Sequence record: PX063913.1
Source of the DNA: a phage
Direction: 5' to 3' (one strand)
Length of the DNA: 44,574 nt
Positions 4,128 through 14,847 of this stretch are shown piece by piece. Numbering within the stretch: the first letter of the stretch is position 1; every line of letters begins with the position of its first letter. The position numbers and the translations under genes are program-made. The notes under the pieces are model-generated. The model was not told the origin of the DNA. It did no database searches and was given only the letters and a program-made list of their open reading frames with translations.

Positions 4128-4572
4128 GATCTGGATCTATCGCGTACAGGGCAATTTTCTTATTACTGTTTAGAACGCGTTGCACGCGCTTTGATTCCTC
4201 GGTGCCGAGCGGTCGGCAGTCGGAGTAGTAAGACCCGTTCCCTCGCCACGCAACCAGCACCAGGTCTTTCCGGCCAATCTTAGACGTGCGGCCCTTCGGA
4301 CGCACGTACTCCTCGGCCCGTTTGCAATGCTCACGCAGCCCGTCGGCAGTGATGCGGTTTAGTGCAACGCTGGTGGTGTATCCGGTGCGCTGCATAATCC
4401 CCATCAATTCGAATAGCAGTTCGAAGCGCTCCTCTAACTCCATGCGACGCTTTTCTTCCGTTTCATAGCTTGACAGGTAGGTATCTGCCAGCGCGCTGAC
4501 GCGTTCTGCCTGCTCGCGGGCTTCGAGGCATTGCGCGGCCCAGTAGTTTTTCTCTTCTTGTAAAATTTTCAT
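4114..4572 (-). CDS. Hypothetical protein
   Basis: 152-aa ORF, ATG at 4572 with GGAGA upstream; no recognisable motifs. Confidence 0.5.
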   Translation of the reverse strand: MKILQEEKNYWAAQCLEAREQAERVSALADTYLSSYETEEKRRMELEERFELLFELMGIMQRTGYTTSVALNRITADGLREHCKRAEEYVRPKGRTSKIGRKDLVLVAWRGNGSYYSDCRPLGTEESKRVQRVLNSNKKIALYAIDPDHAEE

Positions 4573-10607: not shown

Positions 10608-11330
10608 TTAACGGCGGCGACGTTTACGTGGCGCTTCGTCTTCGTCATCATCGTCGTCATCGCGGCGCTTGGACTTTTTGGACTTGCGCGGCTTGTCCTC
10701 TTCGTCATCGTCATCACGACGTTTTGACTTTTTGGACTTGCGCGGGCTTTCATCTTCGTCATCGTTGTCCAGGTCTTCGTCGGAGCAAGAAGAACCGCCA
10801 CCGCCGAAGGATTCACCATCATCGCGGAAGCGCAGACCCAAAAGACCAGCACCGAGTCCCTTGCCGTTGGTATTGTTCCACGCCCAGATATCGAGTGACA
10901 CGTTGCAATAACAACCGGAGTAGATCTCCTGGCCTTCGATCTCGTCGCCTTCTACGGTCAGACCTTGTTCCGTCTGCTTCTCGCCGAGTGACGTTTGAAT
11001 GATCGGCTGTTTGAACGATTTGGCGTTGATGTACAACATGCCTTCGAATTCTTCGGTTACTTCGTCGCGCTCGTCACCGTCGCGAACTGCGCATTCCTTA
11101 GAATCCTGGGCGTAGTGGCGGTCCATCCACTTATCAGCATTCTTCTCGGATTTCAGCTTGTCGGTGAGCACTGCGCGCGCTGCCGCTTCCACTTTGTCCA
11201 CCTGCGGATCTTCTTTATCCAGAAGAATCACTGCACGGTATGCCGGTTTTTGACCATCCTGTTTAGGGGTATCGCGTTCCCAAATTTTAAGGAAACATAC
11301 GCGCACATTTTTCAGGTTGACTTTAGCCAT
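10608..11330 (-). CDS. Single-stranded DNA-binding protein (DUF2815 / T7 gp2.5-like)
   Basis: Start at MAKVNLKNVRVCFLKIWE (ATG 11330); YSGCYCNVSLDIWAWNNTNGKGLGAGLLGLRFRDDGESFGGG matches the DUF2815 SSB family. C-terminus is a tandem-duplicated acidic/basic tail ending RKRRRR. Confidence 0.6.
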   Translation of the reverse strand: MAKVNLKNVRVCFLKIWERDTPKQDGQKPAYRAVILLDKEDPQVDKVEAAARAVLTDKLKSEKNADKWMDRHYAQDSKECAVRDGDERDEVTEEFEGMLYINAKSFKQPIIQTSLGEKQTEQGLTVEGDEIEGQEIYSGCYCNVSLDIWAWNNTNGKGLGAGLLGLRFRDDGESFGGGGSSCSDEDLDNDDEDESPRKSKKSKRRDDDDEEDKPRKSKKSKRRDDDDDDEDEAPRKRRRR

Positions 11331-11420
11331 TTTCCAATTCCTCATTTTCACATGTATCGGGGTTATTGTGAGCCACCCCGTTCGGCTTGGTTGTTAATCT
11401 ACTTGGTTGCACCTAAGCGG

Positions 11421-13526: not shown

Positions 13527-13539
13527 TGTCTCGTCCTCT

Positions 13540-13566
13540 AAAAAGAGGCCCGCAGATTAGCGGGCC
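13540..13566 (-). terminator. Rho-independent terminator (minus strand)
   Basis: On the minus strand GGCCCGC-taatct-GCGGGCC followed by TCTTTTT, after the stop of the acidic protein gene. Confidence 0.55.
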
Positions 13567-13574
13567 GGATAATA

Positions 13575-14117
13575 TTAGTCTTCCAGTTCGAAATAAGTTT
13601 CGACGATTTCTTTTAGCTCGGTGTGGAAGTCTTCGACGTCGTCGTCTTCCAGTTTAGCGATTGATTTGATCTCGAACGATTCCAGCAGGTCGTCGAATTC
13701 GTCGTTCGCATCATCATCATCGCCGCCTGCAATAATAGCGGCATACTGTTTGATTTCGTCGCGCATCTCTGCCAGCGGGTCGGCTTCTTTCTTACCTTTC
13801 CCTTTCGCTGGTGCTTTTTTACCCTTCGCCGGTTTTTCGTCTTCGGCTTCATCATCATCGTCGTCATCCTCTACGACTTCTTTTTTGGCCTTTCCTTTAG
13901 ACTTGGTTTCTTTTGCCGCGCCTTTTTTCGCCTTGGGCGTATCTTCGACTTCGTCCTGATCGTCGTCTTCGACTTCAGTCTCCGGCTTGGCCTTGCCTTT
14001 CTTAGCGGTGCCGTTTGCTTTTGGGTCTACGGCAGCGCCCACAGTTTCATAATGTTTAGCGATGGTTTCCAGTGCTACTACGCCGCGAGTGATCAGGTTT
14101 ACGATTTGCTCAAACAT
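13575..14117 (-). CDS. Highly charged acidic/lysine-rich early protein
   Basis: Start at MFEQIV (ATG 14117, GGAG 8 nt upstream). The upstream part of the long track ORF runs through the promoter. Alternating poly-D/E runs and K-rich runs (KKGKAKP, KGKKAPAKGKGKK). First gene downstream of the leftward promoter. Confidence 0.6.
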   Translation of the reverse strand: MFEQIVNLITRGVVALETIAKHYETVGAAVDPKANGTAKKGKAKPETEVEDDDQDEVEDTPKAKKGAAKETKSKGKAKKEVVEDDDDDDEAEDEKPAKGKKAPAKGKGKKEADPLAEMRDEIKQYAAIIAGGDDDDANDEFDDLLESFEIKSIAKLEDDDVEDFHTELKEIVETYFELED

Positions 14118-14313
14118 GGTATATCTCCGATTGGTTAAGTTTAGGTGTCGACCATTAACTTCGTCGGTGGCCTTAACATAGAGCCAGGTTACGCGTTCTC
14201 CCTTTCGGGTAGTGGACCTGGTTATATAATCACGGTTGGGAATCCTGACACTTCGATCCGGCCCCTGCGTTGCCCCTCTCCAGTTTGCGTCCTGCATCCT
14301 GTCGACGAGGTGA

Positions 14314-14342
14314 ATATTAGATTGGTTGCAGAAGGGAGTCAA
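14314..14342 (-). promoter_or_regulatory. Leftward sigma70-like promoter
   Basis: Minus strand reads TTGACT, 17-nt spacer, TAATAT; the spacer contains the ATTGGTTGCA motif. Confidence 0.5.
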
Positions 14343-14457
14343 CAACTAATTTAAAAAAAAAGCGCCGAAGCAAAATGCGACGGCGCTAACCAATAAGAGA
14401 CAATGAGACGGGAGTATTATTACACGCGTGCGCGCCCGTTTCAATATTCCAAAGGAG

Positions 14458-14486: not shown

Positions 14487-14517
14487 CGTTGGTCATTAAC
14501 CAACCGGAGACAGATTA

Positions 14518-14847
14518 ATGAATATCAACGACGCAATCGAAATGTTAACTAAGACTGTTTGCAGTGAGACTAGCCGGTCATGGGCGTATACCGATGCCGT
14601 GGGGCGGGTGCTATTTGAAATCGAACGTCTGCGCAGTGTCGAAAAAGAATTGCGCGCCAGGCTGGAATTACTCAACGGTACGGCGGCGAGCAAGCTGCAA
14701 AAGCACAATGAAGAAATGGAAGAATATAAAAAACAGGTTATCCGTTTGCGCGATGAGGGAAAGTCATGGGCGATGATCGCGGAGTTGACAGGAATTAATC
14801 AGAGCACCGTGCGCTCCTGGGTACGCAATAACAAAACTTCGAAGTAA
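14518..14847 (+). CDS. Helix-turn-helix DNA-binding regulator
   Basis: C-terminal GKSWAMIAELTGINQSTVRSWVRN is a classic HTH; first gene of the rightward arm; GGAGA RBS. Confidence 0.65.
   Translation: MNINDAIEMLTKTVCSETSRSWAYTDAVGRVLFEIERLRSVEKELRARLELLNGTAASKLQKHNEEMEEYKKQVIRLRDEGKSWAMIAELTGINQSTVRSWVRNNKTSK

Follow-up and report, generated by a model that had tools for sequence, protein, structure and literature searches.

The minus-strand open reading frame at 13575..14117 of the phage genome analysed here (44,574 nt, hereafter the window) is a real, protein-coding gene under strong purifying selection. Judged from its features and setting, its product, a 180-aa acidic and Lys-rich protein (hereafter the charged protein), looks like an accessory of the phage DNA-replication machinery and not like an Ocr-like DNA mimic.

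The charged gene and its genomic setting

The window is a Dhillonvirus genome, and the 2 kb around the charged gene is 97.5% identical to Escherichia phage SSL-2009a, in which the equivalent gene is orf51, annotated as 'hypothetical protein'. This 2-kb region is matched by 176 phage records, nearly all of them Dhillonviruses, in which the charged gene is a core gene. The gene runs from an ATG at 14117 to a TAA stop codon at 13575-13577, with a GGAG box 7 nt 5' of the ATG. Its product matched phrog_3127 over the full length (E = 6.6e-51, residues 1-180 versus profile positions 1-178), and 179 homologs were found. Codon differences to relatives were largely synonymous both in the N-terminal part (63 synonymous and 7 nonsynonymous) and in the C-terminal domain (204 synonymous and 35 nonsynonymous). 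Moreover, proteomics of cells infected with phage EE09 detected only four phage proteins at 25 min, among them the homolog (CDS56, EE09_56), which the table for cell-free lysates does not list (PMC10673088). Together, the ribosome-binding site, the phrog_3127 match, the homologs, the codon differences and the proteomic detection of a homolog confirm the gene that a sequence-only reading of this DNA had proposed.

Several GenBank records annotate the charged gene with an in-frame upstream extension, which the same reading had considered probably untranslated. Our results bear this out. All homologs align from Met-1 (MFEQ/MLDK), and substitutions in the 190 nt preceding the ATG fall about equally on the three codon positions, with no third-position bias. 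Four relatives (L016, L022, L023 and L024) lack about 136-149 nt of the extension, in two of three cases the missing length is not divisible by 3, and three of these four relatives have in-frame stops in it. A sigma-70-like promoter of the leftward operon (TTGACT-17-TAATAT) is predicted at 14314..14342 (minus strand) and is conserved even in the divergent L016. There is no credible ORF between this promoter (14342..14314) and the charged gene, which is indeed the first ORF after the leftward promoter, as had been suggested.

The charged gene is followed in the leftward operon by two small ORFs, a DUF2800/PD-(D/E)XK nuclease, a further small ORF, a gp2.5-like SSB/annealing protein and PolA, and past PolA by a Lar-like protein, an SNF2-type helicase and methyltransferases. 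The divergent plus-strand genes encode an HTH protein and a 754-aa primase-helicase. In all five gene maps compared (the window, L005, L010, L011 and SSL-2009a), the charged gene is the first cistron facing the AAA_25 primase-helicase, and the DUF2800 nuclease follows it after 0-2 small ORFs; an Enc34-type SSB and PolA follow the nuclease in the window, L005, L010 and SSL-2009a, while the L011 contig ends too early. On the 2.4-kb contig L009, the charged gene lies directly upstream of the nuclease. Kosakonia phage Kc259 has the counterpart, by profile comparison a true remote homolog (hhalign 95.7%), in second position, with the nuclease homolog downstream of it. Thus, the charged gene stands at or near the head of the nuclease/SSB/PolA operon in every relative examined. 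Four hypothetical proteins are listed in this replication module in the paper on Enc34 (PMC5686142).

The family is narrow. A profile of the C-terminal domain (C-domain) searched against 1.84 billion representative proteins retrieved only 42 clusters and gave no link to any other family; apart from a few fragmentary or spurious ones, the matches are proteins of ~115-212 aa that carry the domain C-terminally, and the domain is duplicated in three family members. The family is found in Dhillonvirus, Jersey-like and Kagunavirus phages as well as in phages of Serratia, Edwardsiella and Klebsiella. Among the members of phrog_3127 are SSL-2009a orf51 and proteins of HK578, TheodorHerzl (gp48) and MB78, the last of which is named '13.88 kDa late protein' in UniProt. 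Among the phage records listed, the annotation is hypothetical except in four, which read 'late protein' or '13.88 kDa late protein'. Two known Dhillonvirus factors were considered as identities of the charged gene and rejected: Ksap1 has 74 aa and its gene lies elsewhere in the genome (PMC11564622), and Anti-Tmn is ORF35 and contains beta-sheet (PMC11846954).

Proteins in the same slot of other phages, including gp67 of Chi-like phages, gp74 of Xylella phage Sano, gp05 of FoX4 and gp50 of Brevibacterium phage LuckyBarnes, each have a charged low-complexity linker between an N-terminal helix and a small helical C-domain. Foldseek gave weak matches of the charged protein to those of FoX4 (E = 0.025) and LuckyBarnes (E = 0.31). 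Homology to the Chi-like, Sano-like and FoX4 proteins was rejected, since profile-profile comparisons were not significant (hhalign probability 11% or less). On these comparisons, the same-slot proteins are treated only as positional and architectural equivalents that are not demonstrably homologous.

Three-part build of the charged protein

As the sequence-only reading had stated, the charged protein is about 180 aa long with acidic and Lys-rich runs; D, E and K are present at 27 residues each (15% each), and the pI is 4.4. The charge-striped region, however, is limited to about residues 31-112, whereas residues 1-30 and 113-180 are ordinary conserved helical elements. The alignment and two AlphaFold models agree on three parts. 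An N-terminal amphipathic helix (residues 1-26; 14040..14117, minus strand), seen in the alignment and in AF2, is formed by residues 2-26 of this part and has a broad hydrophobic face; the whole family shares R11, A15, E17 and A20 without exception. Docking of this helix on the C-domain is not confident in AF2, with a pLDDT of 70 in one model and 45 in the other. It is followed by a disordered linker of alternating acidic and basic blocks (residues 27-113; 13779..14039, minus strand), which is hypervariable in length and sequence. The C-terminal part is an acidic three-helix bundle that ends in ...YFELED (residues 114-180; 13578..13778, minus strand), supported by the alignment and by AF2 with pLDDT above 90. 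Its predicted helices span residues 114-176, its net charge is -21 over 68 aa, and its acidic positions are individually conserved. Such a bundle is a generic fold, and searches of Pfam, NCBIfam and PDB sequences with the charged protein returned low-complexity noise only.

In the linker of the window protein, K makes up 27% and D+E 30%, and the net charge is -3; the charged fraction is 0.55, the net charge per residue -0.05 and kappa 0.47. Its acidic blocks are ETEVEDDDQDEVEDT (-10) and EVVEDDDDDDEAEDE (-12), and the basic blocks are KKGKAKP (+4), KAKKGA with KSKGKAKK (+8 together) and KPAKGKKAP with KGKGKK (+8 together). Compared with shuffles of the same composition, the linker kappa has a z of 7.4 and was reached by 0 of 1000 shuffles, indicating that the blockiness is no composition artefact. 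Significant blockiness was found in 26 of the 29 family linkers tested. Among 115 homologs, the linker is 17-81 aa long with a median net charge of 0, and a unit of about KAKKEVVEDDDxEDEKPAKxKKAPAKG is present zero to two or more times. Thus, charge segregation is conserved across the family although the linker sequence is not. At the nucleotide level, no tandem repeats were found in the charged gene by TRF, and the gene contains diverged direct repeats of 59 nt and 21-28 nt.

The poly-D/E runs are the least conserved part of the charged protein. Natural variants of 115-124 aa (P0092, P0084 and P0096), with linkers of 17-26 aa, have no acidic block and retain the Lys-rich patch adjoining the C-domain, suggesting that the poly-D/E runs are the most dispensable part. 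A Lys/Arg-rich patch next to the C-domain is kept in every homolog. This constancy is a point for an architectural DNA binder akin to HMG proteins or histone H1, in which the Lys-rich patches would have an affinity either for DNA in general or for AT-rich DNA in the neighbouring origin/promoter region, the N-helix would oligomerise, and the acidic domain would modulate binding or recruit factors. The K/A/P/G-rich patches such as KPAKGKKAPAKGKGKK and the pairing of an acidic with a basic region do resemble AT-hook/HMGA proteins and H1 tails. An AT-hook-like KRGRP occurs in the homologs P0109, P0117 and P0148, and Sano gp74-type same-slot proteins have an invariant AT-hook GRGRP together with an acidic block of variable length. 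The charged gene also abuts the lowest-GC stretch of the window (GC 0.475-0.478), at the minimum of the cumulative GC skew, and the abundance of the homolog would fit a stoichiometric DNA binder. However, a canonical RGRP core flanked by basic residues is absent from the window protein, and its basic patches are short and embedded in a protein that is acidic overall. Besides, the best-conserved parts are the N-helix and the acidic bundle rather than the basic patches, and no DNA-binding fold was detected. An HMG- or H1-like role is rather improbable in our estimate, although the alternative that the sequence-only reading had named, a nucleoid-binding factor, keeps some probability.

Acidic tails of the replication module and candidate roles

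Short acidic motifs recur among the enzymes encoded around the charged gene. In the six-frame translation of the window, [ST]D[DE]DL occurs exactly four times versus 0.1 expected by chance: at the C-terminus of the primase-helicase (17099, plus strand), twice in the DUF2800 nuclease (12195 and 11682, minus strand), once internally and once C-terminally, and at the start of the SSB tail (10784, minus strand). This placement suggests that [ST]D[DE]DL is probably a shared docking motif. The core motif is absent from the charged protein itself, and comparison of its ending (...YFELED) with ...TDDDLKD and ...TDEDLSNE shows only a loose match to TD(E/D)DL. In SSL-2009a, a [DE][LV]x0-2[DE] ending is present in 4 of 67 proteins, namely the nuclease, the primase-helicase, the charged protein and one tail protein.

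The SSB of the window (10608-11351, minus strand) has a charge-striped tail where a purely acidic one would be expected, its last ~60 residues being made of alternating acidic and PRKSKKSKRR-type basic blocks (...SDEDLDNDDEDESPRKSKKSKRRDDDDEEDKPRKSKKSKRRDDDDDDEDEAPRKRRRR). Similar SSB tails are found in Jersey-like phages, Sano and Kc259 but not in Chi-like or FoX4 phages. The protein CDS61 of EE09, another of the four detected in infected cells, sits at the SSB position. In the whole genome of the Chi-like Salmonella phage FSL SP-088 (L079 and L074), 9 of 278 ORFs end in [DE][DE][DE]V, for which a rough back-of-envelope estimate of the chance expectation is ~0.03. They encode the primase, the exonuclease, the SSB, the RdgC-like gp15, the PAPS-reductase-like gp31, the small terminase, gp11, gp53 and gp67, a set of sequence endings that looks like a phage-wide acidic C-terminal tag. 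The same-slot protein gp67 thus shares its tail with the primase, the exonuclease and the SSB of that phage.

The acidic tails of T7 gp2.5 and gp4 bind DNA polymerase (PMC5686142). By analogy with these tails, the most economical reading is that the charged protein serves, without enzymatic activity of its own, as an adaptor in an electrostatic replisome network like that of T7, a proposal that we hold tentatively and rate somewhat below an even chance. The module it would serve comprises the primase-helicase, the DUF2800 nuclease, the gp2.5/Enc34-type SSB, PolA and the SNF2 helicase. In this scheme, the N-terminal amphipathic helix may self-associate or dock on a partner, and the near-neutral charge-block linker would be a flexible tether whose always-kept Lys-rich patches may make contact with DNA or with acidic tails. 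With its ...ELED end, the acidic three-helix bundle would engage a basic, DNA-binding surface of a replisome partner, as modelled on the binding of the polymerase by the acidic C-terminal tails of T7 gp2.5 and gp4. Both the partners and the adaptor role are what we infer, whereas the architecture, conservation, synteny, abundance and common tail motifs were observed.

Several observations argue for such an adaptor, including the fixed synteny with the nuclease, SSB, PolA and primase-helicase, the same three-part build of the same-slot proteins of other phages, the site-by-site conservation of the acidic positions in the C-domain, and the conserved terminator right after the charged gene. The abundance of the EE09 homolog and the detection of CDS61 agree with this role as well, as do the acidic tail motifs common to the module enzymes and the charge-block tail of the SSB itself. 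On the other hand, the same-slot proteins of Chi-like, Sano and FoX4 phages lack demonstrable homology to the charged protein, its ...ELED end resembles TD(E/D)DL only loosely, and the bundle is of a generic kind. The module matches that of T7 in kind and includes a gp2.5/Enc34-like SSB, PolA and a primase-helicase; several of its proteins carry acidic C-terminal motifs, and the charged protein has an acidic, aromatic-plus-aliphatic end (...YFELED). In contrast, the acidic element here is a folded 68-aa bundle on a separate, predicted non-enzymatic protein that adds a charge-block tether and an N-terminal helix. If the charged protein organises the replisome by electrostatic tails, the acidic-tail principle of T7 would be extended to a free-standing adaptor, which would also account for the recurring acidic tail motifs in these phages.

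The blocky linker and the second charge-block tail on the SSB are also compatible with a condensate scaffold that overlaps the adaptor, in which linker and tail would drive electrostatic phase separation and concentrate replication proteins. The conservation of charge segregation where sequence is not conserved and the abundance of both the charged protein and the SSB are in line with this, and phage-driven phase separation has a precedent in Gp27 of SPO1 (PMC13401047). However, the natural variants with linkers of 17-26 aa and no acidic blocks are hard to fit with it, and we consider the scaffold quite improbable. The combined form, in which the charged protein and the SSB tail would form an electrostatic hub or condensate that gathers the primase-helicase, nuclease and polymerase via their short acidic tail motifs, is likewise improbable. 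If true, such a hub would give a small siphovirus a membrane-less replication factory, with same-slot equivalents in Chi-like and Sano-like phages.

T7 places its host-directed inhibitors gp2, gp5.5 and gp5.9 among its replication genes, which weighs against reading the charged protein as an adaptor from its position, since synteny alone is no proof of a replisome role. The same arrangement in T7 speaks for the alternative that the charged protein is a host-directed electrostatic decoy, in which the acidic bundle, possibly together with the acidic linker blocks, would mimic nucleic acid and titrate a host DNA-binding protein. Candidate targets are RNA polymerase, H-NS or HU, RecBCD, and a restriction or other defence complex. 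The strongly negative C-domain with its conserved acidic positions, the very high abundance of the homolog in infected cells, and a position as first cistron after a strong promoter with a terminator of its own would all suit a decoy. Small acidic phage proteins offer precedents, among them SPO1 Gp44, which combines a DNA anchor with a disordered acidic mimic (PMC8208478). Against a decoy, the charged protein has no sequence or fold similarity to any known mimic, its acidic linker blocks are dispensable while the basic patches are always retained, and its gene is a strictly syntenic core gene with no homologs on plasmids (tblastn, 72,556 plasmids).

Site counts in the window point in the same direction. 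The EcoKI site (AACN6GTGC) occurs once (2095-2107) versus 7.8 ± 2.8 expected, a depletion that suggests passive avoidance of type I restriction by site loss. In line with this count, the Dhillonviruses of the BASEL collection carry only 0-2 type I sites, and their type I restriction phenotypes are for this reason uninformative on inhibition. The Chi sequence (GCTGGTGG), in contrast, occurs seven times versus 1.36 expected (~5-fold), at 4369, 16668, 20720, 25327, 30167, 38843 and 42811, with six of the seven on the plus strand, and 0 of 100 shuffles reached this count. Such enrichment would be needless under full inhibition of RecBCD and argues for a phage that manages RecBCD through Chi instead of blocking it. 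Weighing both sides, we regard a host-directed decoy as a doubtful reading, although one with an appreciable minority chance; if it holds, the charged protein would be a DNA mimic of new architecture.

The specific form of a decoy put forward by the sequence-only reading, a DNA-mimic anti-restriction protein of the Ocr/ArdA kind, found no support. Like T7 Ocr (gp0.3) and ArdA, the charged protein is small, acidic, helical, abundant and encoded by the first gene of its operon. However, it has no Pfam, NCBIfam or PDB-sequence match above noise to the Ocr family and no Pfam match to ArdA, and tblastn found no match to it in the 72,556 plasmids. The structure prediction that the same reading had proposed as a check revealed no fold similarity to Ocr, ArdA, any other known mimic or any solved structure. 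The elongated helical dimer by which Ocr mimics bent B-DNA was not found in the charged protein; nor does it have a surface almost without basic residues, since it contains 27 Lys (15%) and a linker of net charge about 0. Dispensable acidic runs, a location embedded in the replication operon as a syntenic core gene absent from plasmids, and the single EcoKI site are further differences or counter-evidence. An Ocr/ArdA-like type I anti-restriction function is accordingly very improbable at best, and an anti-restriction label should not be given to the charged protein on present evidence.

Other acidic phage proteins are comparable in part. SPO1 Gp44 is a DNA-anchored flexible DNA mimic that inhibits RNA polymerase; its acidic domain has a D/E content of 57% and lacks basic residues, and a folded Xis-like DNA-binding domain forms its N-terminus (PMC8208478). 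Like Gp44, the charged protein is a three-part, putatively early phage protein with a disordered D/E-rich segment and a part that could contact DNA. Unlike in Gp44, the linker consists of near-neutral mixed blocks and not of a disordered domain with almost only D/E and no basic residues, a single helix makes up the N-terminus, and the conserved acidic part is a folded domain. The RecBCD inhibitors lambda Gam and T7 gp5.9 are likewise small acidic proteins encoded just upstream of phage nuclease and SSB/annealing genes, but no homology to either was found by Pfam, PDB-sequence or fold comparison, and the window is enriched in Chi as described above. Phage therapy and biocontrol often consider Dhillonviruses, Jersey-like and Chi-like phages as candidates, and the replication modules of these phages still hold conserved uncharacterised proteins such as this one.

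Regulatory elements around the charged gene

Between the leftward promoter and the charged gene lies a non-coding 5' leader of ~190 nt (14118..14307, minus strand), which is nearly invariant among Dhillonviruses, being 95-100% identical among those that differ by 6-10% elsewhere. The leader segment absent from L016 and L022-L024, here about 140-150 nt, is flanked by GTCGACA repeats. A hairpin in the leader (CCAGGU...ACCUGG; 14184-14221, minus strand) is otherwise invariant and shows compensatory base changes, one stem pair being A-U in 10 sequences, C-G in two, U-A in one and U-G in one. The predicted folding energy of the leader is unexceptional (z = +0.39), and an Rfam search with it gave no match. 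The leader includes a translation-initiation region, TTAACCAATCGGAGA (14124..14138, minus strand), with the GGAG box at 14128-14125. This 15-mer recurs almost unchanged ahead of the divergent HTH gene (14496-14510, plus strand), so that a 15-nt translation-initiation motif, TTAACCAAYCGGAGA, is common to both divergent first genes.

The divergent gene at 14518-14847 (plus strand) encodes the HTH protein of 109 aa, with matches to Pfam HTH_23 and Sigma70_r4_2. Its GenBank labels include 'transposase', 'resolvase' and 'DNA recombination nuclease inhibitor gamma', and only a generic HTH assignment is supported by its sequence. About five ACCAA/TTGGT half-sites are present in 400 bp, including those at 14309-14327 and 14386-14400, and a TTGGT-N5-ACCAA palindrome spans the ribosome-binding site of the HTH gene. 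These half-sites are candidate operators for the 109-aa HTH protein.

A candidate small-RNA unit was noticed at 14353-14444 (minus strand), with a promoter-like TTGAAA-17-(TG)TAATAAT, a transcript of ~57 nt (14409-14353), a hairpin GCGCCG...CGGCGC and a T9 run. Close relatives share the unit without change, and in the divergent L016 the stem differs by two compensatory changes (TCCCCG...CGGGGA). A segment of the candidate small RNA, UCUCUUAUUGGUUA, is complementary to the ribosome-binding region of the charged gene, with 12 Watson-Crick pairs and one G-U pair out of 14. For this pairing, the divergent L016 shows no compensatory change, and no supporting covariation was found.

Right after the stop codon of the charged gene, an intrinsic-terminator-like hairpin with a T-run (GGCCCGC-TAATCT-GCGGGCC) is located at 13537..13566 (minus strand; hairpin 13547-13566). 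In L012, L016, L024 and L039 the stem is kept and the loop is the reverse complement (TAATCT versus AGATTA). A terminator directly 3' of the charged gene would fit the charged cistron being expressed more highly than the genes that follow it. L018 and L020 carry an additional ORF, inserted immediately behind the stop codon of the charged gene.
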